A stretch of 64,000 nt of DNA from a virus (taxonomy: Duplodnaviria; Caudoviricetes), in IMG/VR virus record IMGVR_UViG_3300031992_000011; one strand, 5' to 3'. This document shows positions 9,725 to 40,509 of this stretch, piece by piece. Position numbers and translations under genes: made by a program. The notes below the pieces were generated by a model. That model worked only from the letters and a program-made list of their open reading frames with translations. It was not told the DNA's origin and did no database searches. Position 1 is the stretch's first letter. The number at the start of each line of letters is the position of its first letter.

Positions 9725-9779
9725 TTAACATTCTTTAACATATAAAATTTGCAGAAGTCAACTTTTTGTTGTACCTTTG
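9725..9779 (+). promoter_or_regulatory. Bacteroidota-type promoter for tRNA array with TTAA-N6-TTAA box
   Basis: TTTG 9748-9751, TACCTTTG 9772-9779, TTAA at 9725 and 9735. Confidence 0.8.
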
Positions 9780-9830
9780 CAGCGCAAAAGCACTAAACAT
9801 AGTTCCTTGACATGTTGAAGCAGACCAAAA

Positions 9831-9901
9831 GCGTCCATAGCACAGAGGCAGTGCACCGGCTTCCCAAGCCGGGGACGCCAGTTCGATTCTGGTTGGACGC
9901 T
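9831..9901 (+). tRNA. tRNA-Gly(CCC)
   Basis: Cloverleaf GCGTCCA/TGGACGC, anticodon loop TTCCCAA. Confidence 0.95.
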
Positions 9902-9908
9902 CAAGTAC

Positions 9909-10119
9909 TGCGAGTATAGACCACTTAGTAGTGACCGGTGTAAGCGCTTGGGTAGCTCGAGGCAATGTCCGAGCGTGCAGTCGTGGGGCAACGTGCACCC
10001 TCAGACCGGTGAAACGTGTTGGTGCTTGTGAAGGCCCATACGAGGTGGCGCAACAGATACGGTTCCCGCGTGGGGAATATCCAAGCCCGTGACAGCCGCC
10101 GCTCGTCAATTTACTCGCA
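9909..10119 (+). ncRNA. unidentified multibranched ncRNA (~210 nt) between tRNAs
   Basis: Closing stem TGCGAGTA/TACTCGCA, GCTTGGGTA/TATCCAAGC, several internal hairpins. Confidence 0.6.
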
Positions 10120-10122
10120 TAT

Positions 10123-10197
10123 AGGGAAGTGGCTCAGTCCGGTTAGAGCGCTTGCTTTGGGAGCAAGAGGCCGCAGGTTCGAATCCTGTTTTCCCTA
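10123..10197 (+). tRNA. tRNA-Pro(TGG)
   Basis: Cloverleaf, loop TTTGGGA. Confidence 0.95.
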
Positions 10198-10211
10198 CAA
10201 AAAAAAATAAC

Positions 10212-10285
10212 ACTCCAGTGGCGCAATTGGTCAGCGTGTCTGTCTTATACACAGTAGGTTGTAGGTTCAAGTCCTACCTGGAGTA
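10212..10285 (+). tRNA. tRNA-Ile(TAT)
   Basis: Cloverleaf ACTCCAG/CTGGAGT, loop CTTATAC. Confidence 0.9.
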
Positions 10286-10309
10286 CATTTTTGAAAAACA
10301 ATCAGCATT

Positions 10310-10528
10310 ATGCCGAAACTTAATCTAAATGAAGTACTGAATGATGACGATGTCATCAAGGCGTTGAACCCTAAAGAATGGGAGTTCAGGTGTGGCAGTT
10401 GTGACAACTTCTGTGACATCTTCGGGAGATATTCCGAGTTCAAAACCATTGAAAGATGCCCGTTCGAGGGGAAGGTGACGTGGGACACTGATTGGAGAAA
10501 GATTGGCTGTAAGTGCTATTGGAACTAA
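10310..10528 (+). CDS. small Cys-rich protein within tRNA array
   Basis: CGSCDNFC...CPF...GCKC. Confidence 0.65.
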   Translation: MPKLNLNEVLNDDDVIKALNPKEWEFRCGSCDNFCDIFGRYSEFKTIERCPFEGKVTWDTDWRKIGCKCYWN

Positions 10529-10531
10529 AAT

Positions 10532-10605
10532 GGTCCTGTAACTCAGTTGGTCAGAGTGCCTGACTCATAATCAGGGAGTCGTAGGTTCAAGCCCTACCGG
10601 GACCA
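10532..10605 (+). tRNA. tRNA(CAT), probably Ile2 (lysidine type) or elongator Met
   Basis: Cloverleaf GGTCCTG/CGGGACC, loop CTCATAA. Confidence 0.9.
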
Positions 10606-10614
10606 CAATGCAAT

Positions 10615-10688
10615 TGCGGGGTGGAGCAGATGGTCAGCTCGTTTGGCTCATAACCAAAAGGTCGCAGGTCCGAGTCCTGCCCCCGCAA
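10615..10688 (+). tRNA. tRNA-Met(CAT), initiator-like body
   Basis: TGCGGGGTGGAGCAG 5' end typical of fMet; anticodon stem TTTGG/CCAAA; T-loop TCCGAGT. Confidence 0.85.
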
Positions 10689-10752
10689 CAACACAGTCTG
10701 CCGATAAGAGATGAACACCTATTTATGTCTATAGCAGATATAGCATTGAAAT

Positions 10753-11481
10753 ATGAATAGGATAAGGCAAATCATCAACGAGGCAGTCCGAGAGACCTTG
10801 TTGTTTGAAGCGATCAAGTCAAGTTGGTTGAAAAGGTTCTTCGCCGAGCATGGAGGTGTGGACAGCACTATGCACAACGACTACTTGGGCGACGCACAGG
10901 ATGAGGATATCGAGGACGTGAAGGTTTTTCCTTCAAAGAAGGAAGCGTTTGAAATGGCGTGGAAACTGAGACGTGAGCACATAACCGGTTTTCGTAAAGT
11001 ATATGTCGCCAAGGACGGCACGGCAGTTCTTGTCGTGTACAAGGATTCTGTAAAATCAAACCCGACATGGGGCGGAGAAGCGTCCGCAAAGACAGCCGAC
11101 AGGTATTGGAGAAACGGTGAAAGGTTCACTTCGTACAATCCTGAAACCGGTCAGAGAGTACCCGGATACCGTGACGACAGGGGCACCTACACATACAGTG
11201 ACGGAAAGTCAAGCGAAGGTGCCGCCAGATTCGGCATAAGGAATTCGGACGATTACCGTAGACATGTGGCGTTCGTCAGAGATCAGAGGGCGAAGGCAAA
11301 ACAGAACGGAAAAGAGGATGATTTCAACCGTTGGCGTGATGCAGAAGCCAAGAGAGTCAAAGACTACGCTGAAGAAAAGAAGAAGGAACGTGATTGGCAG
11401 AGGGAATATTTCGGGCTCAGTGACCGTGAGCGAGAACGCAGACTGTCAAGACCTGCCCCATTGGACAAGCGTTTCAAATAA
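10753..11481 (+). CDS. leader-family protein (IRQIINEAVRETLLFE)
   Basis: Leader motif; TATTTAT at 10720-10726. Confidence 0.8.
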   Translation: MNRIRQIINEAVRETLLFEAIKSSWLKRFFAEHGGVDSTMHNDYLGDAQDEDIEDVKVFPSKKEAFEMAWKLRREHITGFRKVYVAKDGTAVLVVYKDSVKSNPTWGGEASAKTADRYWRNGERFTSYNPETGQRVPGYRDDRGTYTYSDGKSSEGAARFGIRNSDDYRRHVAFVRDQRAKAKQNGKEDDFNRWRDAEAKRVKDYAEEKKKERDWQREYFGLSDRERERRLSRPAPLDKRFK

Positions 11482-11530
11482 CACGAATGCGTTAAACGGC
11501 CGCGCCGACATGTCAGTGCGGTCATTTTAT

Positions 11531-11602
11531 GCCCCCTTAGCACAGCGGTAGTGCAGTTCACTTGTAATGAACAGGTCGTTGGTTCGAATCCGACAGGGGG
11601 CT
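11531..11602 (+). tRNA. tRNA-Thr(TGT)
   Basis: Cloverleaf, loop CTTGTAA. Confidence 0.95.
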
Positions 11603-11694
11603 CAACATAGCAAGGTAACAACAAGGCGCGACTCCCCCAACCGCGCCGGTAACCCGCACGTAACAGCCGATAGGGGCGGCGACCTTGCCGATAC

Positions 11695-11766
11695 GCGGAT
11701 GTAGCACAACGGTTCGTGCACCAGCCTTCCAAGCTGGGGATGACGGTTCGATTCCGTTCATCCGCT
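11695..11766 (+). tRNA. tRNA-Gly(TCC)
   Basis: Cloverleaf, loop CTTCCAA. Confidence 0.95.
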
Positions 11767-11895
11767 CAAAAAATGGGCTGAAATTTGTGGGCATAAAGTT
11801 AAAACCTCAAGACGTTGAAAGCAGCAGTATAGGGACTGCTATTGGCGGTCAGATTAACCGTAGCCACATCTTGCAAGAGTTTCGGCCTTTAATAT

Positions 11896-11973
11896 AGCGG
11901 AGTGGAGCAGAAGCAGCTCGTCAGGTTCATACCCTGAAGGTCGTCTCAAACGGTGCAAGTCCTACCTCCGCCA
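11896..11973 (+). tRNA. atypical initiator-like tRNA-Met(CAT) with T-arm insertion
   Basis: A1:C72 mismatch, loop TTCATAC, T arm GT-CTCAAAC-GG TGCAAGT CCTAC. Confidence 0.6.
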
Positions 11974-11981
11974 CTAAAATA

Positions 11982-12105
11982 TGGGATTCTACACAGAGTA
12001 TTCTTTTAAGTAGATGCATATGCTTACTAGGATATTGGGTGGTATTAGATTTTGAAACTGCAGATAATCAAAATCTATTAGGAGGTTCGAGCCATCTGTT
12101 TCCCA
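11982..12105 (+). ncRNA. enlarged or degenerate tRNA-Gln(TTG)-like element
   Basis: TGGGA/TCCCA ends, GGTTCGAGCC T-loop, 10-bp TAGATTTTGA/TCAAAATCTA hairpin at the anticodon position. Confidence 0.45.
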
Positions 12106-12119
12106 CAAAATTCAAAAAT

Positions 12120-12193
12120 GGTGCGTTAGTTCAGTTGGTTAGAATGCCTGCCTGTCACGCAGGAGGTCACGGGTCCGAGTCCCGTACGCACCG
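12120..12193 (+). tRNA. tRNA-Asp(GTC)
   Basis: Cloverleaf, loop CTGTCAC. Confidence 0.95.
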
Positions 12194-12247
12194 CTTCTTG
12201 ATTGTTTGAATGAGTGGTTTGGGTCGTGTGAGCGCCCAGACCTTTTT

Positions 12248-12321
12248 GCTCCCTTAGCTCAGTTGGATAGAGCGTGAGGTTCCTAACCCCAAGGTCATGT
12301 GTTCGAGCCACATAGGGAGTA
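12248..12321 (+). tRNA. tRNA-Arg(CCT)
   Basis: Cloverleaf, loop TTCCTAA. Confidence 0.9.
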
Positions 12322-12325
12322 CTAT

Positions 12326-12411
12326 GGATGGGTGGCAGAGTTGGTCGATTGCACCGGTCTTGAAAACCGGCGGCCCGCAAGGGTCCGGGGGTTCGAATCC
12401 CTCCTCATCCG
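12326..12411 (+). tRNA. tRNA-Ser(TGA)
   Basis: Long variable arm, loop CTTGAAA. Confidence 0.95.
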
Positions 12412-12418
12412 CATAACA

Positions 12419-12502
12419 GCGACAGTGGCGGAACTGGTAGACGCGCCACCTTGAGGGGGTGGTGGGCACACGCCCGTGAAGGTTCGAGTCCTTTCTGTCG
12501 CA
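12419..12502 (+). tRNA. tRNA-Leu(GAG)
   Basis: Long variable arm, loop TTGAGGG. Confidence 0.95.
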
Positions 12503-12546
12503 CAGGCCGGCCGCGAGACGCGCAACGGTCCGTGGCATGGGCATTT

Positions 12547-12620
12547 GCTGCCATCGTCTAATTGGTTAGGACGTCGCCCTTTCACGGCGGAGATTACGGG
12601 TTCGAGTCCCGTTGGCAGTA
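12547..12620 (+). tRNA. tRNA-Glu(TTC)
   Basis: Cloverleaf, loop CTTTCAC. Confidence 0.95.
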
Positions 12621-12624
12621 CAAC

Positions 12625-12696
12625 GACTCCGTAACTCAGTGGTAGAGTATCGCACTTTTAATGCGAGAGTCGTGGGTTCAAGTCCCACCGGGGTCA
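12625..12696 (+). tRNA. tRNA-Lys(TTT)
   Basis: Cloverleaf, loop CTTTTAA. Confidence 0.95.
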
Positions 12697-12710
12697 CGAA
12701 CGCGACAAGA

Positions 12711-12783
12711 GGGCCGCTAGCTCAGATGGTAGAGCGCTACATTCGCATTGTAGAGGTCACCGGTTCGAATCCGGTGCGGTCCA
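12711..12783 (+). tRNA. tRNA-Ala(CGC)
   Basis: Cloverleaf with G3:U70, loop TTCGCAT. Confidence 0.95.
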
Positions 12784-12930
12784 CAGACAGAGCGTGTCGC
12801 GAACACGCACGCCATCGCACGAGAGGATTGGGGATGGTAACCCCGGATTGTGGAGGTCGTCTAACCAACGATAGAAGTGGCCGTCCGGTACATAATCAAC
12901 GGACAAACATCGTGACGCTTGGCATGTCAT

Positions 12931-13002
12931 GGGGTGATAGCTCAACGGTAGAGCAATTGGCTGTTAACCAATAGGCTGCAGGTTCGAATCCTGCTCACCC
13001 CG
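12931..13002 (+). tRNA. tRNA-Asn(GTT)
   Basis: Cloverleaf, loop CTGTTAA. Confidence 0.95.
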
Positions 13003-13076
13003 CAACTCAGAAGAACGGGCGAATCGCCCTGACAATGGGGATTGAACGGCACCGCCAAAAGTGGTGCCTTTTGCCG

Positions 13077-13160
13077 GGGAGCGTAACCGGTAATTGGTAG
13101 CCGCACGGACTGTAAATCCGTTCCTTAATTGGACTGGTCGTTCGAGTCGACCCGCTCCCA
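13077..13160 (+). tRNA. tRNA-Tyr(GTA)
   Basis: Variable arm, loop CTGTAAA. Confidence 0.9.
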
Positions 13161-13171
13161 CAATGACTGTT

Positions 13172-13245
13172 CTTCCTGTAGCTCAACTGAATAGAGCAAT
13201 GCACTTCTAATGCATAGGTTCTGGGTTTGAGTCCCAGCGGGAAGA
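13172..13245 (+). tRNA. tRNA-Arg(TCT)
   Basis: Cloverleaf, loop CTTCTAA. Confidence 0.9.
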
Positions 13246-13254
13246 CTAATAACA

Positions 13255-13327
13255 AGGCGGTTAGCTCAGTTGGTAGAGTGGCGGTCTCCAAAACCGCAGG
13301 TCGCACGTTCGAGCCGTGCACCGCCTG
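13255..13327 (+). tRNA. tRNA-Trp(CCA)
   Basis: Cloverleaf, loop CTCCAAA. Confidence 0.95.
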
Positions 13328-13335
13328 CAAAAAAA

Positions 13336-13425
13336 GGAAGCATACCCAAGTTGGTGAAGGGGGCGGCTTGCTAAGCCGCTAGGCCTCGGCGACGGGGCGC
13401 GGAGGTTCGAGTCCTCCTGCTTCCG
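13336..13425 (+). tRNA. tRNA-Ser(GCT)
   Basis: Long variable arm, loop TTGCTAA. Confidence 0.95.
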
Positions 13426-13432
13426 CACAAAC

Positions 13433-13505
13433 AGGGTAGTAGCGCAGTTGGTAGCGCGCTACGTTCGGGACGTAGAGGTCGCAGGTTCGAATCCTGTCTA
13501 CCCTA
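13433..13505 (+). tRNA. tRNA-Pro(CGG)
   Basis: Cloverleaf, loop TTCGGGA. Confidence 0.95.
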
Positions 13506-13513
13506 CTTGAATG

Positions 13514-13568
13514 TTAACAATTATTAACATGAAAAATTTGCAAGGTATATTTTTTTGTCGTACCTTTG
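13514..13568 (+). promoter_or_regulatory. Bacteroidota-type promoter for scaffold-RNA array
   Basis: TTAA 13514/13524, TTTG 13537, TACCTTTG 13561-13568. Confidence 0.8.
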
Positions 13569-13574
13569 CACTTG

Positions 13575-13662
13575 AAAACAATGGTGAGTGACAGGGTTAC
13601 TTCGCATACAAACTGTTACAAGATTAAAAAGCAACGAACCCTTCGCATATCTTCCTTGTTTT
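13575..13662 (+). ncRNA. scaffold RNA 1 (GGUUACUUCG family, minimal cargo)
   Basis: Closing stem AAAACAA.GG/CCTTGTTTT, AGGGTT/AACCCT, motif at 13595-13604. Confidence 0.65.
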
Positions 13663-13682
13663 TGTTCTTTGACATTCTTAAA

Positions 13683-13817
13683 ATGTGTGCAGTGACTGTG
13701 GCGGTTACTTCGTTGATTAGCTCATTTGGTAGAGCATAAGTTTATGGTACTTAGGGTAGATGGTTCGATTCCATCATCACAAAAGATTGTTTGCCGCCGC
13801 AAAATTTTCTCACACAT
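13683..13817 (+). ncRNA. scaffold RNA 2 with embedded tRNA-like body (anticodon ATG)
   Basis: ATGTGTG/CACACAT, TGTGGCGGT/GCCGCCGCA; D, anticodon and T arms at 13714-13779. Confidence 0.75.
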
Positions 13818-13825
13818 AACTCATA

Positions 13826-13958
13826 TTCCGCATAGTGACGGGCGGTGTTACTTCGAATTATTTAGCGCAGTGGTTAGCGCATCACACTTTTAATGCGAGA
13901 GTCGCCGGTTCGATTCCGGCAATGATTCTTTAAAAGCACCCCCATTTTTCTTGCGGAA
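13826..13958 (+). ncRNA. scaffold RNA 3 with embedded tRNA-Lys(TTT)-like body
   Basis: TTCCGCA/TGCGGAA closing stem; cloverleaf at 13856-13928. Confidence 0.75.
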
Positions 13959-13965
13959 AAGCACA

Positions 13966-14090
13966 ACCGGTTGTGACGTATCTCGGTTACTTCGATACGT
14001 TGGTTCGAGTCCAACTTTGTCCGCCATACAATTGGACGAATAGTCAAGTGGTTAAGACAGAATTCTTTACCGAGGCGAGTTTCCACCGGT
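13966..14090 (+). ncRNA. scaffold RNA 4, circularly permuted tRNA mimic (YrlA/Y-RNA-like architecture)
   Basis: ACCGGT/ACCGGT, CTCGGT/ACCGAG; order is T arm, closed acceptor stem, D arm. Confidence 0.75.
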
Positions 14091-14141
14091 ACAAAAAACG
14101 GTCTGCTTCAATGTAGATGGATTTTGTAGATGGTTTAACGT

Positions 14142-14174
14142 GCGGTGCGCTGTATATCAGTGTGCCGCTTTTTT
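14142..14174 (+). terminator. intrinsic terminator ending the scaffold-RNA transcript
   Basis: GCGGTGCGCTG/CAGTGTGCCGC + T6. Confidence 0.8.
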
Positions 14175-14207
14175 GTTTGAGTATAAAAAGACAACACAAA
14201 AAAAATA

Positions 14208-14516
14208 ATGAACGACATTGACAAATGGATGTGGAAGCCATGCACATTCACAGTATTCAACAACGCCGTGGACAACGGATGGGCAATAGACATGCGGAAC
14301 AGCACAGGACAAGACGTGGACATATCGGATTGCGAATTCCATAAAGTTGATATGGGTGACAGCGTGCGAGACGGAATAAAGAGCGGGAACAAGACATTGG
14401 TGAACGCAGAACAAGAGAAGATAGACACATTCAACAAGGAGAACTATCCGGGTATGGCCATGTTCCTGATACAGGACATAGGTTTGCTCTATGTCATAAG
14501 GCAACGAAATGATTAA
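14208..14516 (+). CDS. hypothetical protein
   Basis: 102-aa ORF with A-rich leader. Confidence 0.7.
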   Translation: MNDIDKWMWKPCTFTVFNNAVDNGWAIDMRNSTGQDVDISDCEFHKVDMGDSVRDGIKSGNKTLVNAEQEKIDTFNKENYPGMAMFLIQDIGLLYVIRQRND

Positions 14517-14813: not shown

Positions 14814-16922
14814 ATGCTATACGACGAAGATATAAAGGCGAAGGAACAAATAGTTGAAGATGCCAAGTTGGTGTTGAAACGCGAGTTTGTCGGTATTGAC
14901 GACATCATTGACGGTGTAATGGAGAATGTGCGAACATGGTACATGTTTCCGAACCTGTACAACCGCCCGCTCATCATCAACCTGTTCGGAATGACAGGTG
15001 TCGGCAAGACAAGTCTTGTGCAGCGCATATCCCAGCTGCTTGATTTGGAAAAGGACTACTATTATTTCAACTTTGGTGAGATAAGCGAATGTACTGCGTG
15101 GGATATTGAAGAGAGAATAAATGACGAGATCAGCGACGAGAAATCGAACCGTGTTTTCGTGTATGATGAATTTCAGTACGCGTCTACCATTGCCGAAGAT
15201 GGAACTGAGAGAGAAAAGAGAAGCGGACTTAAACCGTTCTGGGAACTTATGGACGCAGGAAAGATGCACAAGCGGGACTCGGTTTACCTGTACAGTTCGT
15301 TATTCAGCACCGCCAATTATCTTATACGCATAAATAACGTGTGCAGAATACAACTTGAGAACGGCGCTTGGGTTAACCGCGACGAATGCCTCTCACATTT
15401 CGGCGAATACGAGATTTCCAGATTCAGCACAGTCCTCAACACAAGAGGCGCGAGCGGAGCCCCAACTGAACGACCGAATGCCATTGGAAAAATTGAAGCC
15501 GATGGAATGGGCAGTAATCTCCCAAACAACATGCCGAGCAAGGGAAGCATGCAATCATTCATATTGACAGCGGACACATTCTCCACAATCGTAAGGCGGT
15601 CTCGCAGGAGCAGAAGGGACACTGACAGTTACATAGAACTCTTCAACGAGTTTTGCACATACGATATAGACCAACTGATCGCCCGGATTGTCGACGTGTA
15701 CAACATGGCGTGCAAGGGATTTGATCTGGATTTTCACAATTCTCTCATCTTTGTCTTGGCGAACCTTGACGAGGCGTACAACATGACGTTCAACCTGAAC
15801 CCGGACATGTCGGCCGACACTTTCCATAAGATGACGAAAAATATCTCCATCGTCAACATCAAGAAGGCGCTGCAGAAAAGGTTCAGAAACGAGCAGATTG
15901 CGCGTTTGGGCAACATACATTTCATATACCCTTCATTGTCAAGCAAGACTTACCGCGAGATAATACGCCGAAACCTTGACAAGTTCACGGTTGAATTCCG
16001 TACAATGACCGGAATAGAGGCTTCTTATGACAAGAAGATTGTTGACCTTATATACAAAGACAGTGTGTTCCCGACGCAGGGGACGCGTCCGGTATTCTCG
16101 ACAATATATGATTTCGTGAACTCGAAGGTGTCAAACATCATCATAGACATATATGACACGGGTATAACAGCGCAGTCAGTACACTTTACCGCAAGCGGAA
16201 GGATGACAAAGGTTGTCGTCACAAGCGGTGACTGTCAAGGAAAAAAAGTGTTCAAGTACAAGAACGTAATCCGTGTCGACTCATTGAGGGACACGAAGAA
16301 GGACACACAACAGGCGATAGTGGCACTTCATGAGAGTGGACACTTTGTCACCTATCTCCTCACCTTCGGCAAGACGCCGGAAAAACTTGTGTCGCGCACA
16401 GCGAATGACGGCGACGGAGGGTTCATGCAGCATTTCGCCGATGACGATGTATCGTCATTCACCAAGATAGGTCTTAAAAGACATCTGATCGTTCTGCTCG
16501 GAGGATATGCCGCAGAGAAGATGTTTTTCGGCGATGACCACATGACGGGCGGCGCCTGCTCGGATCTGGAATCTGCGACAAAACTGGCCGTCAGGATGGT
16601 CCGTGAATACGGGATGGGGTCGTTCAAGTTCACATCAACGACAATGTCTTCACCGATGCATGAGAGGATGATACTTCTTGACCATGACAGGAAGAAGCAC
16701 GTCGATGACGAGGTCAACAGGTTAATAGAAGGCGCGTACAGTGAGGCGTGCGAATATCTCGACAAGTGGCGGAGCATATTAAAGGAATCTGCCGAGTATC
16801 TGTGCACACATTCATCCATGCCAAAGGAGATAATGGAAAAATTGTTCAAGAAAATACCGGCAGAAGCGATAGGGGAGAATTTTGACAGGCAGTTTTATAT
16901 GGATATGATACATAAAATCTGA
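14814..16922 (+). CDS. AAA+ ATPase fused to M41 (FtsH-type) zinc peptidase, no TM anchor
   Basis: Walker A GMTGVGKT, Walker B VYDEFQ, HESGH, LLGGYAAE, GACSDLESAT. Confidence 0.85.
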   Translation: MLYDEDIKAKEQIVEDAKLVLKREFVGIDDIIDGVMENVRTWYMFPNLYNRPLIINLFGMTGVGKTSLVQRISQLLDLEKDYYYFNFGEISECTAWDIEERINDEISDEKSNRVFVYDEFQYASTIAEDGTEREKRSGLKPFWELMDAGKMHKRDSVYLYSSLFSTANYLIRINNVCRIQLENGAWVNRDECLSHFGEYEISRFSTVLNTRGASGAPTERPNAIGKIEADGMGSNLPNNMPSKGSMQSFILTADTFSTIVRRSRRSRRDTDSYIELFNEFCTYDIDQLIARIVDVYNMACKGFDLDFHNSLIFVLANLDEAYNMTFNLNPDMSADTFHKMTKNISIVNIKKALQKRFRNEQIARLGNIHFIYPSLSSKTYREIIRRNLDKFTVEFRTMTGIEASYDKKIVDLIYKDSVFPTQGTRPVFSTIYDFVNSKVSNIIIDIYDTGITAQSVHFTASGRMTKVVVTSGDCQGKKVFKYKNVIRVDSLRDTKKDTQQAIVALHESGHFVTYLLTFGKTPEKLVSRTANDGDGGFMQHFADDDVSSFTKIGLKRHLIVLLGGYAAEKMFFGDDHMTGGACSDLESATKLAVRMVREYGMGSFKFTSTTMSSPMHERMILLDHDRKKHVDDEVNRLIEGAYSEACEYLDKWRSILKESAEYLCTHSSMPKEIMEKLFKKIPAEAIGENFDRQFYMDMIHKI

Positions 16923-17048
16923 CATATTGTCATTTTTTTGCCGTGGTATTGACTTTGCTATATCATATAATGGATTTTTAAATAAAGTACTACAATGTAA
17001 AGCACTTTGTTTATCAGTCAAAAAGACGACACAAAAATTTTAAGGATT

Positions 17049-17495
17049 ATGATATTTGATTTTAGCAAAACACCAATTTTCAGTTTATTTGACCCGTTTG
17101 AGACTTTTGAAGAAATCTTTTCGGATGTACTGAAGGAAAAGAATGGAAAGTTCGACAGCGAAAGAAGTGAGAAGACTTCCATATACAAGGACAACGATCT
17201 TGTATACGAGAGAGAAAAAGAATGGAAGAACGATGAGTTGGTGAAGGACGAAGAGAAAGGACGTGACACACTGAAGTCGCTGACCGGACGCAATGACAAG
17301 CGTTCATGTGAAAAAAAGTCGGAAACTTCGGAAGATACCAAGAGTACAGGCATCATGCTTGCAAAGAAGGACAAGTACATAAACACTCTTATCGAGAAGA
17401 ACAGAAAACTCAAGGCGCTGAACGATCATCTCTCCGAAGAAAACGAAAGACTGCGCAACAAAATAAAACAAGCACACGACAGTCTCAGACCATAA
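17049..17495 (+). CDS. hypothetical protein with C-terminal coiled coil
   Basis: ORF 17007..17495, ATG start at 17049. Confidence 0.7.
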   Translation: MIFDFSKTPIFSLFDPFETFEEIFSDVLKEKNGKFDSERSEKTSIYKDNDLVYEREKEWKNDELVKDEEKGRDTLKSLTGRNDKRSCEKKSETSEDTKSTGIMLAKKDKYINTLIEKNRKLKALNDHLSEENERLRNKIKQAHDSLRP

Positions 17496-17558
17496 AGGGA
17501 TTTTTTCTGCATAGTATGTTCAGGTGCGTTTGACAATTTTGGCATTCGCACTTGTTTT

Positions 17559-17613
17559 TTAACAATTTTACACACAAAAAATTTTGAAAAAGGCAAAGTT
17601 CAATGTAACTTTG
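17559..17613 (+). promoter_or_regulatory. Bacteroidota-type promoter
   Basis: TTAA 17559, TTTG 17583, TAACTTTG 17606. Confidence 0.75.
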
Positions 17614-17634
17614 CGGTGTCTTATAAATGGTAAA

Positions 17635-18729
17635 ATGTCAAACAAGGATTATTACAACATACTTGGTGTCGGAAGGGACGCGACGGATGAAGACATAAAA
17701 AAAGCGTACAAGAAACTTGTGCTGCAATATCATCCTGACCGTCAACAAGGTAAGACTGACAAGGAGAAGGAGATTGCAGACGCCAAATTTAAGGAAATAA
17801 ACGAGGCATACCATATATTGACAGACAGCACCAAGCGGAAACTTTACGACACATACGGAACAGTCGATGAACAGGTGGATGAAGGCATGGGACACATGTC
17901 AGATTTCATGCGCGAATTCATGAGACGGAACGGTTTCACCGAAAATGGATTCCAAAACAAGTCAATGGGCAGCAATATTGAAGTACACGTCAATCTGACT
18001 GTCGCGGAGATTCTTGGCGGAAAGAAGAAGGAAGTGACGTTCAAACGTGCACGGAAATGTGTACATTGCAACGGGACCGGGTCAGCTGACGGGAGAGAAT
18101 CGAAATGCCCAAATTGTGGAGGTACCGGATTTGTCACAAGGTTCCACAGGAGTGGATTCGGCGCGGTACAACAGACGATGACGTGCCCTTCCTGTGGGGG
18201 AAGCGGAAAGGTGGTCACATCACCGTGTCATCATTGCGGGGGAAGTGGGCTCGAAGACAAGGAAGACAAAATCTCATTCAACATACCTATAGGTGTTTGT
18301 GACGGAGCATATACTGTGTTCTCTGGATATGGGGATGAATCTCCCGACGGCGGACCGGCAGGTGATGCGATACTCATATTCCACATCGACATGCCTGACG
18401 GTTTCTCCGTAGGGAAAGCGGCAATGCAATACGGAATACCGACGTCTGACATATACAGTATCGTCGGTGAGATCAACGTGCCTATATTAGACTGCATAAC
18501 GGGCGGGGATGTAAAATTCGTACATCCCGACGGAAAGAAGATAAAGTTCAAGATAGGCAAATGCACTGAGGACGGAACAAGCGTCAGGATGGCAGGAAAG
18601 GGACTTCCTCGGAAAAATGGAACCATGGGGGACTTATATATGGTGATACATGCCAAGATGCCGAAAACGCTCAATTTCGACGACATAAAGAAAATAAACG
18701 AACTTAAAAAAAGTAATTCGTTCAAGTGA
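17635..18729 (+). CDS. dnaJ: DnaJ (class A) chaperone
   Basis: DYYNILGV, HPD, four CxxCxGxG repeats, GDLY. Confidence 0.95.
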   Translation: MSNKDYYNILGVGRDATDEDIKKAYKKLVLQYHPDRQQGKTDKEKEIADAKFKEINEAYHILTDSTKRKLYDTYGTVDEQVDEGMGHMSDFMREFMRRNGFTENGFQNKSMGSNIEVHVNLTVAEILGGKKKEVTFKRARKCVHCNGTGSADGRESKCPNCGGTGFVTRFHRSGFGAVQQTMTCPSCGGSGKVVTSPCHHCGGSGLEDKEDKISFNIPIGVCDGAYTVFSGYGDESPDGGPAGDAILIFHIDMPDGFSVGKAAMQYGIPTSDIYSIVGEINVPILDCITGGDVKFVHPDGKKIKFKIGKCTEDGTSVRMAGKGLPRKNGTMGDLYMVIHAKMPKTLNFDDIKKINELKKSNSFK

Positions 18730-18730
18730 T

Positions 18731-19177
18731 ATGATACACTCATGCGGAATCATACCGTTCAGGGTCAACGATGACGGAAAAATGGAATTTTTCGTCGGAC
18801 ATCCGGGTGGATGGAACAGGGATTACTGGGCAATGCTGAAAGGGCAGATGGAGGACGGCGAGAACGCGTCCGAGTCCGCAGTAAGGGAATTTACCGAAGA
18901 GAGCGGTGTGGACCTGTCGTCTTGCCGCAGTCAGATGCTGATACCGTTGGGCTCGGTGATGCAGAACCCCAAGAAAATGGTGACGGCATTCGGTTTGCAT
19001 TTTCCGGAAATAGACCCGGAAAAGTGCCATTCCAACATGGCAGACAATGGTCTGAATCCGGAGATAGACAGTTACCGGTGGATGACAATGGACGAACTTG
19101 CACATAAGACCCATGCCACACATATTGTCTTTTACGAGAAGTTGTTGTCGATGGCAGAAAACGAAGAAAAGATATGA
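18731..19177 (+). CDS. Nudix hydrolase
   Basis: Nudix box KGQMEDGENASESAVREFTEESG. Confidence 0.9.
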   Translation: MIHSCGIIPFRVNDDGKMEFFVGHPGGWNRDYWAMLKGQMEDGENASESAVREFTEESGVDLSSCRSQMLIPLGSVMQNPKKMVTAFGLHFPEIDPEKCHSNMADNGLNPEIDSYRWMTMDELAHKTHATHIVFYEKLLSMAENEEKI

Positions 19178-19755
19178 GGATAATTACCGGAAAAGACGCG
19201 ATATTCTATACCGACAGTTATGACGTGGTGCTGGTTGGGACAAGCGTGTACAATATGCTGACAAACGGTTTCCAATCCAAGATACGGTTCAAGTATCCGA
19301 ATGTGCGGGACGCAAACGACAGGACGGGATACGGCGATCTCAGGAAACTCGGCACACGTCTCACAGTTGACTGTGGAAGCACGCAAGTCTCATTAATGTA
19401 TGTGTCGAAATTTCCGAACAGCCGGCGTGTTTTCGTGGACTACGACGCGCTGAGGAACGCGCTTCTTACTGCACGGAAAGAATTTAACGGGAAACGGATA
19501 ATGACAACCGTTGTGGGTTCTACACCTTTCGACGGAAACGGAGACAAGGAGACATGCCTGTCGATAATTTCTGACTGCATGAACGGGGTCGATATTGATG
19601 TCTACGACTACGAACAAGTCCCGAGACTCGTCGAACTTGAACATTACAGGAAAATGTTAAGCGGAAAGAGGCAGACAGAACCCGAAAAATACGACAGGAT
19701 GAGATCCGAATGGGACAAATTGATGGCACGCATATACCTTCAGTCACAGAAATGA
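19174..19755 (+). CDS. macrodomain-like protein
   Basis: IITGKDAIF...IRFKYP...KLGT...VDYDAL...GNGD pattern resembling phage Poa1/Tk.4-type macrodomains. Confidence 0.55.
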   Translation: MRIITGKDAIFYTDSYDVVLVGTSVYNMLTNGFQSKIRFKYPNVRDANDRTGYGDLRKLGTRLTVDCGSTQVSLMYVSKFPNSRRVFVDYDALRNALLTARKEFNGKRIMTTVVGSTPFDGNGDKETCLSIISDCMNGVDIDVYDYEQVPRLVELEHYRKMLSGKRQTEPEKYDRMRSEWDKLMARIYLQSQK

Positions 19756-19758
19756 CAT

Positions 19759-20310
19759 ATGGCTAAGAAGAATACATACAAGAAAAAACCGCTATTCGAC
19801 GAACCGAGGATAAACGGAGAAATCACATGTAAAGGTTCTGTGAGAGTCGTGTTCAAGAGCAGAGAGAATGAACAAGAGTCTTTCAATCAGGTGATGAGTA
19901 TCGACGCCGCAAGGTCTGAGGCGGCATCTAGGTCGCTCGACCTAATTGAAATCAACCCTTCAACGACACCTCCCATATTGCGTATAGACAATTACTCTAA
20001 GTATCTGTTCGAGCAGAAAAAGAGAGTGAAGGAGAACAAGAAACCGTCGCAGCAAGTCAAAGAGATACAATTGTCGACCAACATATCCGAGCACGACATG
20101 GAGACAAAGGCCAAGATGGCCGAACGCTTCCTGTCCGAAGGGGACAAGGTCAAGGTTGTACTGAAAATGCGCGGGCGCGAACTTGGGCGACGCGAACAGT
20201 CCAAAAAATCCATACTCTTATTCATGGACCGACTTGCCGATGTCTCGCTGCCGGAGAGCATGCCGCGTGACGAGGGCAACAAGTGCATCGTCATACTCAA
20301 GAAAAAATGA
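19759..20310 (+). CDS. infC: translation initiation factor IF-3
   Basis: RINGEI, LDLIEI..PP, KEIQLSTNISEHDMETK, FLSEGDKVKV..RGRE. Confidence 0.92.
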   Translation: MAKKNTYKKKPLFDEPRINGEITCKGSVRVVFKSRENEQESFNQVMSIDAARSEAASRSLDLIEINPSTTPPILRIDNYSKYLFEQKKRVKENKKPSQQVKEIQLSTNISEHDMETKAKMAERFLSEGDKVKVVLKMRGRELGRREQSKKSILLFMDRLADVSLPESMPRDEGNKCIVILKKK

Positions 20311-24516: not shown

Positions 24517-24693
24517 ATGGCAAACGACACGAAGAAGCTCGAGCAAGAAATATCGACACTTTCCAAGGAAGTAGGAAAGATGTCCGACACAATGAAGGAA
24601 AGCAACCGGGTGCTGCAGCAATTGGTGAGGCAGATGGAAAAAATCACCGAGCGCATGACGCAGCAGAACGAACTGTTACGCAACGGAAAATGA
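24517..24693 (+). CDS. small coiled-coil protein (58 aa, not on ORF track)
   Basis: MANDTKKLEQEISTLSKEV...; follows TACCTTTG at 24483; ATGA-coupled to the next gene. Confidence 0.7.
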   Translation: MANDTKKLEQEISTLSKEVGKMSDTMKESNRVLQQLVRQMEKITERMTQQNELLRNGK

Positions 24694-26042
24694 TCGGATT
24701 TGACGACATAAGGAAAGAAGGACTTCTGCTCTATGAGTATGTAAGAGGCAGTCACGCATACGGACTTCAGAAACCGGACGGAAGCAGCGACATTGACACC
24801 GGCGGTGTATTCATTGAACCATACGAGTGGATAGCCGGTCTCGGGCATGACGCAGTCGAACAGGTGGCGGATGCACGCGGTGACACTGTGTGGTATGCAC
24901 TCAAGAAATACCTCAGGCTCCTCATTGTCGCAAATCCGACTATGTTGGAGAGTCTGTTCGTGCCGGAACGTTGTGTCCTGTATGAACATCCTTTGTTCGG
25001 GACAATCAAGGCGAACCGAGACATCTTCGTCACCAAAGAATGTTTCAAGTCATTCCTTGGATATGCGGTGAATCAGATAAAGAAGTGCCGCGGACTGCAC
25101 AAAATGATAGTACAAGAGGATTTCGAGCGGAAACAGCCGCTTGATTTCTGCTATACGTTCTATGGGCAAGGAAGCAGCAAGATAACCAACTGGCTTGAGT
25201 ACAGAGGTCTCAAGCAGGAGTATTGCGGACTGGTGAATATTCCGAATATGCGAGACATCTACGGATGCTACTATGACTGGCACAGACATTTTACCGAGTG
25301 CGGAATCACATATGAAGAATTAATTGAGACATTTCTCAATGGCCGTCCGGACACAAATCTGTCTGTCGTCATTGACCGGATCAAGACATGCTCCGACAAT
25401 GCCGAGAAAGAACACCTTGAACGGATGCGTGAACTCGCGGTGAAATGGAACATGGTAGATTTCATAACGAGGGAAGTCCTCGGTATGAATGAGATTTATG
25501 ACGAACACGCCGCCTGCGCTGTGATAGCAGAATGGATGAACAGACTTCAAGACAATCACTACAGTGGAATTGTCGGTCCTGACGGTCAGTCAAACGAAAT
25601 TCGACTCTCGTCCATACCAAAAGGTGAGATGCCGATATGCAACATATCGTACAACAAGGACGGATACACCAAGCACTGCGTCGAATACAAGAACCTTCAG
25701 AGATGGAAAAGGGAGAGAAACCCCGAACGCTACAAAGAAAATGTCGGCAAGAACTTTGACCGAAAGAATGTCGCCCACGCCGTGCGATTGATGCACATGG
25801 GGATAGAGATCGCCAGAACCGGAAAGGTCAATGTAGACAGGACTGACATCGACCGCGACTTTATAATGGGGATACGAATGGGTGACACGTCATATGACGA
25901 GATAATGTCATATCTTGAGTCAAAAAAGTCCGAGCTTGAAGACGCCATGATGACGTCGACGATACCGGATAGCGTTGACATGGACAAAGTAAGTGAATTG
26001 CTTGTGGCAATGAGAGAACAATTCAATAATGTCAAAAACTGA
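24690..26042 (+). CDS. Pol-beta superfamily nucleotidyltransferase (RlaP/YcgL-like)
   Basis: GSHAYGL...SDIDTGGVF, ANPTMLESLF, KNVAHAVRL. Confidence 0.85.
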   Translation: MIGFDDIRKEGLLLYEYVRGSHAYGLQKPDGSSDIDTGGVFIEPYEWIAGLGHDAVEQVADARGDTVWYALKKYLRLLIVANPTMLESLFVPERCVLYEHPLFGTIKANRDIFVTKECFKSFLGYAVNQIKKCRGLHKMIVQEDFERKQPLDFCYTFYGQGSSKITNWLEYRGLKQEYCGLVNIPNMRDIYGCYYDWHRHFTECGITYEELIETFLNGRPDTNLSVVIDRIKTCSDNAEKEHLERMRELAVKWNMVDFITREVLGMNEIYDEHAACAVIAEWMNRLQDNHYSGIVGPDGQSNEIRLSSIPKGEMPICNISYNKDGYTKHCVEYKNLQRWKRERNPERYKENVGKNFDRKNVAHAVRLMHMGIEIARTGKVNVDRTDIDRDFIMGIRMGDTSYDEIMSYLESKKSELEDAMMTSTIPDSVDMDKVSELLVAMREQFNNVKN

Positions 26043-35018: not shown

Positions 35019-35583
35019 TTTGGACGGTGTGATAAGGGACATCGTGACGCCAATGTGCCATGTGTACAACCGTGACGTCCCACACGGCACCAAAGTAAGA
35101 CCCGGTGACATTGTCCACTACGATGTCGGGGTGATGTTTCCGCAAATCGCTGAATGTGAAAAGTATGACGGACTTTGTGTGCGCGACATATTCTTCACCG
35201 GTGAAAATGCGCGTACAGTGTTTCTCGACAGAGCGCTTATCATTCCGGGCAGCGTCGAGGCCATCAGACGGATGATGGACGCCGGACACACAGTGTCCAT
35301 CGTGACGTGGCAGATGAACGAGGACAACATACGTTACGCCATTGAGTTCCTGTCAAGGCACAAGGTGCCCTACGACGAGATAATGTTCACTCACGCAAAG
35401 GAGATGGTGATAACCGACTTTGCCGTCGACGACAACCCGGAGTTCCTTGAGCCCGAAGGCCGGGAAGTGGGAAAGATATTGATAGACGCACCATACAACA
35501 AGTGGTATGACCGTGCAGTCCGCAAGAATAGTCTGGCTGACGCCGCTGAATATATACTGACATTTAAACAAGAGACGACATGA
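35002..35583 (+). CDS. HAD-family 5'(3')-deoxyribonucleotidase
   Basis: IDLDGVIRD, VDDNP, APYN. Confidence 0.85.
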   Translation: MRIKIDLDGVIRDIVTPMCHVYNRDVPHGTKVRPGDIVHYDVGVMFPQIAECEKYDGLCVRDIFFTGENARTVFLDRALIIPGSVEAIRRMMDAGHTVSIVTWQMNEDNIRYAIEFLSRHKVPYDEIMFTHAKEMVITDFAVDDNPEFLEPEGREVGKILIDAPYNKWYDRAVRKNSLADAAEYILTFKQETT

Positions 35584-36971
35584 CAAGTTTTTTCGGAGAA
35601 TTGATAGACAGAGAGACGTTCGACGTCAGATGGGACGACGTGATGCAGATACCGGAGTTCAGCGTATTGTCTGAGACAAAACAGACGCCTGTTTGGCACA
35701 GGGAGGGTGACGCGATGGCACACACCCGTCTTGTGGTCGAGTCCATGCAGCGCAGAATAAACGGTGACACATCATTGAGTGATGACGACAAACTCATACT
35801 TGTCGCCGCGGCGTTGTGCCATGACATAGGGAAGGGAACCACCACATCGTATGACGAGAGCAAAGGGGATTACGTGTCGCACAACCATTCGGTCGAAGGA
35901 GAAAGGATTGTCCGCGAGTTGTTCTTCGACGAGGACTTCGTCATCCGTGAGAGGGTGTGCAACCTTGTCAGACATCACATGACCTTCCATCACATATTCG
36001 AGAAGGGAAAGGACAAGCAGTACCGTGACATCGAGCGGCTGATGCAGTCATGGAATCCGCTGACCATGCACCTTATGCTATGGGAATCGGACTGTGAAGG
36101 TTCAATAAACGACATGAACACTACGGAAGAAACGGAGGCTGAACGTGAGGCGATCCTTGCGATGTCGCGCAAAGCGAGGATTGAGTCAGACCCCATGAAG
36201 AGGTTTGTCAGATATTTTGGACCGAAGTCAGAATCCTATCCGAAAAAAATTGACGCGGAATCCGGTTGCGACGAAGGAATCGCGCCGAGGATGTTGGTTA
36301 TGATAGGACTGCCCGGCAGCGGAAAGAACTTTTATATCGACAATCTGAGCGAGGACATGGAGGCGTTCGTGCTGTCACGCGACGACATCAGGACAGAGAT
36401 GGGACTTTCGGGTGAGAAACCGCAAGGAAACGCCGAAGAGGAGAACCGTGTGACCGAGATATTCAACGGCCGTCTGGAAGACGGAATCAGGGAAAGGATG
36501 AACATCGTGATAAACAATGTGAATCTCAGAAAACGCTACCGCGAGTATGTGGTCGGAATGGCAAGGCGCAACGGATACCGTGTGGAATATGTGATTGTCG
36601 ACACGCCGCTTACACTGTGCCGCCACCGTCGTTACGGCATGATGCCCGAAAGCGTCATCACGCGTATGCTTCGTTCTGCCGACTTTCCTGAACCGTACGA
36701 GTGCGACAAGATGACAGTCATCGAGACTCGGATGCACAAGTTCGACGCGGATGGATCCCATGTCGACAAACAATGGCTTGACGAGGTTGTGCGGCGTTTG
36801 GAGTCTGCCGGGGAGAAGGTTGACGACGAGAAAGTGAACATCATCGAGGAAAACCTGCTTCACGGGACAACCTACCCGTGCCTCACGACAGGGTACAACA
36901 TCACAGAGAAAGGGAAGGATGTGTTTTTGGTGTACACTTTTGACCTTGAAGACGAAAGGAGGGACGTGTGA
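35580..36971 (+). CDS. HD-domain phosphohydrolase fused to polynucleotide-kinase-like P-loop domain
   Basis: WHREGDAMAHT, LCHDIGK, HHM; MIGLPGSGK, LSRDDIR. Confidence 0.85.
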   Translation: MTSFFGELIDRETFDVRWDDVMQIPEFSVLSETKQTPVWHREGDAMAHTRLVVESMQRRINGDTSLSDDDKLILVAAALCHDIGKGTTTSYDESKGDYVSHNHSVEGERIVRELFFDEDFVIRERVCNLVRHHMTFHHIFEKGKDKQYRDIERLMQSWNPLTMHLMLWESDCEGSINDMNTTEETEAEREAILAMSRKARIESDPMKRFVRYFGPKSESYPKKIDAESGCDEGIAPRMLVMIGLPGSGKNFYIDNLSEDMEAFVLSRDDIRTEMGLSGEKPQGNAEEENRVTEIFNGRLEDGIRERMNIVINNVNLRKRYREYVVGMARRNGYRVEYVIVDTPLTLCRHRRYGMMPESVITRMLRSADFPEPYECDKMTVIETRMHKFDADGSHVDKQWLDEVVRRLESAGEKVDDEKVNIIEENLLHGTTYPCLTTGYNITEKGKDVFLVYTFDLEDERRDV

Positions 36972-36972
36972 C

Positions 36973-37122
36973 ATGACACTGGACAAAGCCGTTGATATTA
37001 TTTACTACCCGTCTGACTTGTTTGGGAACAAACCGTCAGAAGACGACGTCAAGAAGGCACGTTCTGTCATCGACGAATATCTTAAGAAAAAACGGGAAAA
37101 GAAAAAAGTTAAGAAAAATTAA
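36973..37122 (+). CDS. small hypothetical protein
   Basis: MTLDKAVDIIYYP... Confidence 0.5.
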   Translation: MTLDKAVDIIYYPSDLFGNKPSEDDVKKARSVIDEYLKKKREKKKVKKN

Positions 37123-37186
37123 CAATTATTGTGTTGTATATCGTGGTATGAGACACTCATTTTAAAGGTATAAAGCATACCATACG

Positions 37187-37420
37187 ATGAGCAAGACAAT
37201 ATTTGATGTGAGCGGCAAGGCAAATGACCTGCTGTCCGTCAGCAATGACGGTTCGATGAAGATGACGAGACTTTTTGTGCTTGGCGATGGACTTGATGTG
37301 GAAAACGACGAGGTTGTTGACTTATGTGTCACATCAACGAATCCGAACCTGTCACATCCGCTCTTTGACCAACTCATAGGCAACGAGATACGAATTACTG
37401 TAAGCGTAGAAGATAAATGA
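37187..37420 (+). CDS. hypothetical protein
   Basis: Coupled ORF. Confidence 0.65.
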   Translation: MSKTIFDVSGKANDLLSVSNDGSMKMTRLFVLGDGLDVENDEVVDLCVTSTNPNLSHPLFDQLIGNEIRITVSVEDK

Positions 37421-38226
37421 TATACAAAAGTTCGCACGGCACTGTATACGCCACCGGTGACATACATGGAAACTTCACGGGTCTCGTAAAGTTCGTGGTT
37501 GAAAACCTCGAAAACTGCGACGTCATAGTCTGCGGCGACATAGGCGTTGGTTTCGAGAAATGCGCACATTATGAGAACATGTTCGCCAAACTGGACGCGA
37601 AACTTGCCTCGCGGGACGTGAAACTGTACATGTTCAGAGGAAACCATGACGATCCGGCATATTTCAACGGCGACAATGGAATGAAGGGGTTTGATAACAT
37701 AATATTGGTCCCGGACTATTCGGTTCTGTTGTCTGCCGACGGATACACCATACTGATGATAGGCGGCGCGGTCTCAATAGACAGGAAGTACAGGATAGTA
37801 GGCGACACCGGCAGACGGAACATGTTCCTCCGTTACCATAACAGCGCTGAAGGATTCATCCCTACATTCTGGCCGAACGAGGAACCGTTCATGTCGGTGG
37901 AAGATTTGCGGAGTATCGAGGACGAAGGCATTAGGGTCAACTGCATATGCACGCACACGTGCCCGTCAGACTGCCGGCCGCCATCAAGCGAACTTCTTGA
38001 GAATGCGTTTGCCGCTGACCCGTCGTTAAGGGAGGACTTGGATGCCGAGGGCGGGACGATGGACACCATCAGGTCATGGATGAAGACGCACGGACACCCT
38101 CTGACGAGGTGGGTGTTCGGACATTACCACCAACACTACGACAATGAAATAGAAGGTATAAGGTACACTGCGCTTGACATGTACAGAGAGAGAAGGCAGA
38201 AACCTGACATCATAGAGATTTTGTAG
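37417..38226 (+). CDS. calcineurin-like metallophosphoesterase
   Basis: GDIHG, CGD, RGNHD, THTCP, FGHYH. Confidence 0.9.
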   Translation: MIYKSSHGTVYATGDIHGNFTGLVKFVVENLENCDVIVCGDIGVGFEKCAHYENMFAKLDAKLASRDVKLYMFRGNHDDPAYFNGDNGMKGFDNIILVPDYSVLLSADGYTILMIGGAVSIDRKYRIVGDTGRRNMFLRYHNSAEGFIPTFWPNEEPFMSVEDLRSIEDEGIRVNCICTHTCPSDCRPPSSELLENAFAADPSLREDLDAEGGTMDTIRSWMKTHGHPLTRWVFGHYHQHYDNEIEGIRYTALDMYRERRQKPDIIEIL

Positions 38227-38245
38227 AACTTCAAATTGAAACGCG

Positions 38246-39751: not shown

Positions 39752-40509
39752 AGATACTTGTGATACCTGACGTACACGGAAGGACATTCTGGCGCGAAAC
39801 CGTCAAACGTGACGATGTCGGACGGGTCGTGTTCCTTGGCGACTACCACGACCCGTATCGCTTTGACGGGATCAAGACCTCGGACTCCGTGACCAATTTC
39901 AGCGACATACTGTCATACGCTGACCGTTCCAGTGACAGGGTCGTTATGCTCTTGGGCAACCACGACCTACCGTATTTCAGCAAGCATTACCTCAGCCTGT
40001 CCCGCTATCACAGCCGATATGACCGTGAGAACCATGAGAGGATGGAGGAAATGTTTGAAAGTCACAAGGACCGTTTCCGGATAGCATACTGTGAGGGTGG
40101 CGTATTGTTCACACACGCCGGTGTGATACCGGAATGGTTCAGAAAGGCAACAGGCGCAGAGTTCAGTGAAGGCACAGACCTTTACGAGGCCGCCGGTCTG
40201 CTCAACACACTGTTGGACACAGACCGTGGGATTGAGAGTCTTTTCAGTGTGGGCGAATGGAGAGGCGGTGACGACGCTTTCTCGTCGTGTGTATGGGCGG
40301 ACATTCACGAGACGGTGATGGAATATGACGACAAGGACAATCCGGCATACGGTGTCAAGCAAGTGTTCGGCCACACCATTCAGGGGTATTACGGCGAGGA
40401 CGGACAAGTGCGGTACGGAAAACCGTTTGAGTTCGCCAATCTCAAGATGCTCGACACCGCCTGCGCGTACATACTTGACACGGATAATTTCACAATCGAG
40501 AAAACATGA
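39748..40509 (+). CDS. calcineurin-like metallophosphoesterase
   Basis: PDVHG, LGDYHD, LGNHD, THAG, FGHT. Confidence 0.9.
   Translation: MKILVIPDVHGRTFWRETVKRDDVGRVVFLGDYHDPYRFDGIKTSDSVTNFSDILSYADRSSDRVVMLLGNHDLPYFSKHYLSLSRYHSRYDRENHERMEEMFESHKDRFRIAYCEGGVLFTHAGVIPEWFRKATGAEFSEGTDLYEAAGLLNTLLDTDRGIESLFSVGEWRGGDDAFSSCVWADIHETVMEYDDKDNPAYGVKQVFGHTIQGYYGEDGQVRYGKPFEFANLKMLDTACAYILDTDNFTIEKT

Follow-up and report, generated by a model that had tools for sequence, protein, structure and literature searches.

A probable YrlA-class Y RNA with an encoded G-CCA in its acceptor loop at the end of a phage tRNA array

The last of four tandem Y-like RNAs at the end of a phage tRNA array, referred to as RNA 4 (positions 13966–14090, + strand, 125 nt), very probably belongs to the YrlA class of Y RNAs—a known class rather than a new kind of RNA—and contains, within the loop of its acceptor hairpin, a discriminator base followed by an encoded CCA. 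The window, that is, the whole 64-kb stretch of DNA analyzed here, would derive from a large Bacteroidota phage, and RNA 4 is recognized within it by alignment to the Rfam YrlA model and by a covariance model of phage relatives (R1). The YrlA class, its occurrence in phages, and a cleaved form are known already; what is modestly new is that N-CCA is encoded and that it recurs across phage relatives.

RNA 4 consists of an outer scaffold and, within it, the elements of the upper half of a tRNA, arranged in a permuted order. Its two ends would form a stem consisting of a terminal helix P1 (5′ strand ACCGGU, 13966–13971, paired with 14085–14090), an internal loop with UGUGACGUA on the 5′ side (13972–13980) and the pyrimidine-rich CGAGUUUCC on the 3′ side (14076–14084; from sequence and folds), and a helix P2 (5′ strand UCUCGGU, 13981–13987, paired with ACCGAGG at 14069–14075). 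Both helices were assigned from folds and the Rfam alignment; a naive 6-mer search for P2 in relatives was unreliable in their AT-rich sequence, and the other two lines of evidence were therefore used for this helix. A conserved stretch, GGUUACUUCG (13985–13994), recognized from its copies in the array and in relatives, overlaps the end of the P2 strand and includes a YrlA-type YUAY, namely UUAC at 13987–13990, which opens the variable region in YrlA.

The part of RNA 4 inside the scaffold had been described, in the sequence-only reading of this DNA, as a T arm, an acceptor 3′ strand, G-CCA, a 7-nt linker, an acceptor 5′ strand, TA, and a D arm, and this series was confirmed base for base. The T arm (GUUGG-UUCGAGU-CCAAC, 13999–14015) and the acceptor 3′ strand (UUUGUCC, 14016–14022) are supported by the sequence and by R1. 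The discriminator G (14023) and the CCA (14024–14026) are read directly, and are followed by the 7-nt linker UACAAUU (14027–14033), with an RNase P cut predicted after U14033. The acceptor 5′ strand (GGACGAA, 14034–14040) is supported by sequence, R1, and covariation, as is, beyond the dinucleotide UA (TA in the DNA; 14041–14042, from the sequence), the 3-bp D arm (GUC-AAGUGGUUAA-GAC, or GTC-AAGTGGTTAA-GAC in the DNA; 14043–14058). According to sequence, R1, and fold, the acceptor stem has seven pairs, one of them G-U, and the T stem has five. On the 3′ side of the D arm, an A and the 9-nt linker GAAUUCUUU lead into helix P2 with no hairpin between them (sequence and fold). RNA 4 has neither a variable (V) stem-loop nor an anticodon arm, and helix P2 occupies the place of the anticodon stem. 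In relatives, the D arm is followed by an anticodon-like hairpin that RNA 4 lacks, in agreement with the earlier proposal that the scaffold replaces the anticodon arm.

The bases expected of a tRNA-like elbow, which are conserved in the T and D loops of YrlA, are present: the T loop is UUCGAGU, the D loop AAGUGGUUAA contains GG, and the equivalents of U8 and A14 are found. By analogy with tRNA and YrlA, the D-loop GG could pair with the T loop, and G14048–C13998 is a possible 15–48 pair.

The sequence-only reading had also stated that the order of these modules matches YrlA. It does: the series of 5′ scaffold strand, T arm, acceptor hairpin, D arm, and 3′ scaffold strand is that of YrlA, with an end-to-end alignment to the Rfam model and a high score with R1. 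The latter model was built from 28 short-type phage RNAs from IMG/VR as seeds, with the window excluded. Searched against the 64 kb, it matched 13976–14059 over its full length with 70.7 bits (E = 1e-13), part of this score being built in because the pattern used to fetch the seeds occurs in the window too, and all 15 of its 15 pairs are standard in RNA 4. The second-best match in the window (18.6 bits) lies at a junction of tRNA-Glu and tRNA-Lys.

The Rfam YrlA model (RF02553), when searched against 146 nt, aligned from 1 to 114 over 13966–14093 with the same helices, but with 18.0 bits (E = 0.13), as compared with a gathering cut-off of 69 bits. A search of 751 nt gave no match up to E = 10. 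The same model scores the phage cousins L014, L044, and L046 at 41–44 bits, and gives 27.3 bits to the tRNA-Glu/tRNA-Lys junction at 12588–12655 of the window, above the 18 bits of RNA 4. Because a tRNA dimer junction scores this well, the Rfam model is a poor discriminator here. Neighboring tRNAs imitate the T–acceptor–D order, and caution is therefore needed with sub-threshold YrlA matches in tRNA arrays; Chen et al. have cautioned about such false positives (PMC4201824). At the gathering level, Rfam reported nothing except tRNAs in the window, neither ARAGORN nor the Rfam tRNA model called a tRNA at RNA 4, and a blastn comparison of 13500–14250 with GenBank phages matched only the tRNA-Lys part. 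For annotation, the lesson is that phage RNAs of the RNA 4 type are missed by the Rfam YrlA model.

With the proposed pairs enforced, the fold of RNA 4 has an energy of −34.6 kcal/mol, as compared with −36.9 kcal/mol for the unconstrained minimum free energy (MFE) structure, which favors a different pairing of the acceptor and D regions by 2.3 kcal/mol. Comparison with relatives—in an alignment that was itself fitted to the covariance model—showed 96.5% of cells to be paired, as opposed to at most 51% with slid partners (49 hits, 43 distinct relatives), and changes on both sides of the pair in all seven acceptor pairs, three of the five T pairs, and two of the three D pairs (43 distinct relatives). 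Because the helices covary in these 43 relatives, the permuted cloverleaf was settled on over the slightly more stable alternative. The MFE pairing of UUUGUC with GACAGA was dropped, given the covariation of the acceptor and D helices.

RNA 4 is the last of four tandem Y-like RNAs (13575–14090) that are built on one common scaffold with different inserts, and that would be transcribed from a promoter of their own. A Bacteroidota-type promoter of the array, recognized as a motif pair (TTTG ... TAcCTTTG), lies at 13537–13568 (+ strand); the same motif pair is found ahead of the tRNA array at ~9763–9786, and a sigma-70 scan at 13537–13568 gave a weak overlapping site only. The array is closed by an intrinsic terminator at 14142–14175 (+ strand), with an 11-pair stem followed by a T run. 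The four RNAs have in common GUGAC, a variable helix, GGUUACUUCG, and a pyrimidine-rich 3′ strand. Three exact copies of GGUUACUUCG and one with a single mismatch occur in 13595–13994, and the motif is invariant across the 28 phage relatives. The 3′ side of the internal loop is likewise pyrimidine-rich in RNAs 2 and 3 (AAAUUUUCU and AUUUUUCU), in which the folds show helix P2 to be changed in sequence and kept in pairing.

The inserts differ in kind. RNA 1 is the scaffold without an insert, RNA 2 carries a tRNA-like insert with a vestigial acceptor stem of 4–5 bp only (Rfam tRNA model, 4–67), RNA 3 carries an entire tRNA-Lys(UUU), and RNA 4 carries the permuted form. An unpermuted, tRNA-Sec-like reading of the region, with GCGGAAAAG pairing with CUUUGUCCGC (19.8 bits, E = 0.35), was rejected because UGCGGAA is part of the closing helix of RNA 3 and because the reading is unsupported in relatives.

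ARAGORN finds a 21-tRNA array at 9831–13929, and the window has Bacteroidota-type promoters. Within the tRNA array, a weak tRNA-like element without an ARAGORN call (11896–11973; 31.5 bits with the Rfam tRNA model) may be a degenerate or unusual tRNA, and three long, G+C-rich inter-tRNA spacers (9903–10122, 11604–11694, and 12785–12930), in which no Rfam family at E = 0.5 and no convincing ORF were found, may be further structured RNAs. Immediately downstream of the four Y-like RNAs, the stretch 14814–20310 has genes for an FtsH-like AAA/M41 protease, a complete DnaJ, a NUDIX hydrolase, and a homolog of IF3. For the FtsH-like protein, IMG/VR yielded neither a relative nor an exact record, and a search of the metagenome collection for an exact 50-mer gave nothing. 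An RNA-repair set is distributed over 24690–26042, 35580–40509, and 43954–44952, and comprises an RlaP nucleotidyltransferase, an HD plus kinase fusion, a Thg1-like enzyme, and an RNA ligase with a PHA02142 OB fold and two metallophosphoesterases on its flanks. TROVE has been noted among the RNA-repair genes of jumbo phages.

RNA 4 belongs to a phage family tied to Ro60 genes. A first pattern scan of IMG/VR (GTGAC...GTTACTTCG) returned mainly chance matches in coding sequence, but a small number of real relatives among them supplied the lead; in the pattern scans, GTTACTTCG followed by a T arm proved widespread among phage contigs. TROVE (PF05731) is present in nine of the nine viral records with such RNAs, including fragments of 12–18 kb, and in three complete genomes a GCCA-type RNA lies less than 1 kb from the TROVE gene on the same strand. 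A Ro60-like gene is located downstream of the Y-like RNA in L014 and L044. The layout of L127 matches that of the window—a tRNA array, four Y-like RNAs, and a terminator—with 25 tRNAs, the GCCA-type RNA last of the four, and rsr directly after the terminator; its four RNAs (L127:4731–5245), comparable to the set in the window, stand directly upstream of TROVE in a complete 173-kb phage genome. By tblastn with seven phage TROVE proteins, no TROVE gene was found in the 64-kb window, and hence none on the same strand within ~4 kb of RNA 4.

The 316-kb metagenome contig L298 has an acceptor identical to that of RNA 4 with a GCCAAAAUU (GCCA) loop; its Y-like RNA at L298:4620–4830 has another 5′ motif, no GTTACTTCG, and an anticodon-like arm with CGU, and a nearby tRNA with the anticodon TCA (ARAGORN; L298:4073–4147) may be an opal suppressor. 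In the 299-kb IMG/VR contig L060, from a huge phage, two Y-like RNAs are built on the GTGAC...GTTACTTCG scaffold; the contig also has over 25 tRNAs and a tmRNA that scores 70 bits.

The internal loop, with GUGAC facing the pyrimidine-rich strand, would most likely bind a phage Ro60/TROVE protein. The position of UGUGACGUA agrees with the location, near the 5′ end, of the Ro60-binding motif GNCGAAN0-1G described in PMC4201824. It contains GACGUA, with one mismatch to GNCGAA, and therefore corresponds to GNCGAAN0-1G only approximately; relatives have strings resembling GU(A/G)G(C/U)(A/G)A at this position of the loop strand. The UGUGACGUA strand is thus a candidate Ro60-contact site, a binding role proposed from the sequence.

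As partners of Ro60, YrlA RNAs have been reported from 22 phages and over 250 bacteria; their modules follow one another as V, T, acceptor hairpin, and D (PMC4201824). With Salmonella Typhimurium YrlA, which functions with Rsr (RF02553; Chen et al., 2014, PMC4201824; bioRxiv 10.1101/312249), RNA 4 shares the stem formed by the two ends, which would bind Ro60, the YUAY, the order of T arm, acceptor-like hairpin, and D arm, and loop bases permitting an elbow. It differs in having a 7-bp rather than a 6-bp acceptor, an acceptor loop with G-CCA and a 7-nt linker, no adjoining rsr in the window, and a location behind a phage tRNA cluster as one of an array of four RNAs; the V stem-loop, absent from RNA 4, occurs in many but not all YrlA RNAs. 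Phage Y-like RNAs that partner phage Ro60 have been described in mycobacteriophages, CcrColossus, and Bacillus phage G (PMC4201824), and, as Yrl1 and Yrl2, in the Thermus phage phiLo, in which phage Ro60 and Y-like RNAs have been studied (PMC12135203). Several Y-like RNAs per genome occur there, as in the window; these RNAs adjoin the Ro60 gene, unlike RNA 4, which has no TROVE gene in its window and a Bacteroidota-type host. An encoded CCA loop is not described for them in the passages searched.

That the internal GCCA of RNA 4 is not due to chance is shown by a census of acceptor loops. Among 110 family members parsed, 51 have plain tetraloops and 59 have loops of at least 7 nt. N-CCA stands one base past the 7-bp acceptor 3′ strand in 16 of the 59 long loops, as compared with 0.9 expected (P = 4e-16), or in 13 of 55 if only distinct acceptor sequences are counted; CCA at other offsets occurs just three times. 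All 16 NCCA-type members have seven of seven acceptor pairs, with U(−1) in 11 and G(+1) in 12. The non-NCCA members have tetraloops or loops starting N-C, like the trailers of the tRNAs in the window. None of these 21 tRNAs encodes CCA, as had been noted from the sequence, and in this system they must therefore be matured at the 3′ side of the discriminator and then receive CCA. In 20 of the 21, the discriminator is directly followed by C, and in ten by CAA (tRNA genes at 9831–13506), which looks like a common trailer signal or a partly encoded CCA.

The built-in CCA end within the loop suggests cutting of RNA 4 into two pieces. RNA 4 combines G-CCA, U(−1), and G(+1) with an intact elbow and a 7-bp acceptor stacked on the 5-bp T stem, features that together would make it a good substrate for RNase P. 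Cleavage would fall between 14033 and 14034, and subsequent trimming of the 7-nt tail would leave CCA as the 3′ end. This assessment draws on what is established about the enzyme and on the remark of Chen et al. about the 7-bp stem. Because all known RNase P determinants are present, cleavage after U14033 with trimming to A14026 is the preferred reading, at not quite an even chance. The product would be a two-piece RNA joined by about 20 pairs, as in Mycobacterium smegmatis YrlA. In the latter, whose acceptor hairpin is likewise 7 bp long, RNase P cleavage has been seen both in vivo and in vitro, and is followed by nibbling and by the addition of CCA (PMC4201824). The cut expected in RNA 4, 5′ of the acceptor 5′ strand, and a 5′ piece ending in CCA are common to both; in M. 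smegmatis, cleavage has been shown and CA is added after it, whereas in RNA 4 the full CCA is encoded and cleavage is predicted. The likeness to two-piece tmRNA that had been pointed out from the sequence holds for topology only: two-piece tmRNA genes also place the acceptor 3′ strand and an encoded CCA ahead of the 5′ strand, and an intervening segment is excised to leave two paired RNAs, as is proposed for RNA 4.

The strongest alternative is that the same YrlA-type Y RNA stays closed, its loop N-CCA guarding against RNase Z or showing a CCA-like surface to a protein partner. A CCA at positions 74–76 is an anti-determinant of RNase Z, and a closed tRNA-like hairpin in this phage would be exposed to the 3′ maturation activity implied by its CCA-less tRNAs. 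G14023 can pair with U14033 in the fold, adding an eighth acceptor pair in the closed form. A structural study likened most YrlAs to circularly permuted tRNAs, with acceptor loops taken to be closed (bioRxiv 10.1101/312249), and the frequency of plain tetraloops in the phage family is in keeping with this. However, a tetraloop would give equal protection, every NCCA-type loop is accompanied by a complete 7-bp acceptor, the U(−1) and G(+1) that RNase P prefers are enriched among these loops, and the sole 7-bp YrlA studied experimentally is cleaved (PMC4201824). The closed form is accordingly considered rather unlikely, and opening by RNase P is still preferred.

A further alternative holds that RNA 4 is the functionless remnant of a decayed tandem tRNA duplication (3′ half, CCA, spacer, 5′ half) that lies inside a Y-like scaffold by chance. 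The series of T arm, acceptor 3′ strand, NCCA, spacer, acceptor 5′ strand, and D arm is indeed the leftover expected from a CCA-encoding duplicate, and duplication may well be the route by which the family arose. Decay is nevertheless very improbable, given the compensatory changes, the conservation in dozens of phage contigs, and the retention of a scaffold, promoter, and terminator of its own; moreover, neither half of RNA 4 is closely matched by any of the 21 tRNAs of the window. Tracts flanking RNA 4 contain no tRNA remnants, with no 5′ acceptor strand upstream and no T arm downstream, and RNA 4 is therefore not a place where two tandem tRNA genes meet either. Least probable of all, with hardly any chance of being correct, is a two-piece tmRNA or a permuted tRNA gene maturing to a working translation adaptor: the permuted order and the CCA encoded before the 5′ acceptor strand recall both two-piece tmRNA and the permuted tRNA genes of the red alga Cyanidioschyzon merolae (Soma et al., 2007, in bioRxiv 10.1101/312249)—in which a loop likewise closes the acceptor, the transcript ends pair elsewhere, and working tRNAs with an anticodon arm arise via a circular intermediate—but RNA 4, at 125 nt, has no anticodon arm, mRNA-like tag reading frame, or pseudoknots, is not called by ARAGORN or by the Rfam tmRNA and tmRNA_permuted models at E up to 10, and has A-U as its third acceptor pair instead of the G-U (G3-U70) of tmRNA alanine charging.

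Aminoacylation of RNA 4 is speculative and improbable, even though the authors of the M. smegmatis study raised this possibility for their YrlA (PMC4201824). The acceptor GGA... together with G73 is shared, within the window, only with two tRNA-Ser genes. Recognition by seryl-tRNA synthetase depends mainly on the long variable arm, which is absent from RNA 4. In a similarly speculative vein, RNA 4 may act as a tRNA mimic on a Ro60 platform, together with the RNA-repair genes of the phage or against host defenses that target tRNA.

Mimicry of tRNA by Y RNAs is known, and opening of the acceptor loop with formation of a CCA end has been demonstrated in one species only, M. smegmatis. A discriminator and CCA at the canonical position with RNase P-friendly neighbors are found in RNA 4 and in about one-quarter of its long-loop relatives; this recurrence suggests that the open, CCA-ended form has been selected in many phages and is not an oddity of one. 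RNA 4, with RNA-repair genes nearby, provides a compact 125-nt substrate for RNase P, RNase Z, and charging tests. A broader proposal, with only a slim chance of being right, is that phage Y RNAs with N-CCA loops form a widespread subclass, whose members host RNase P would convert into two-piece RNAs that end in a genuine CCA, this lineage perhaps being aminoacylated as well. If such a subclass is indeed opened or charged, a Ro60 particle would, during infection, be linked to the machinery of translation or of tRNA surveillance.
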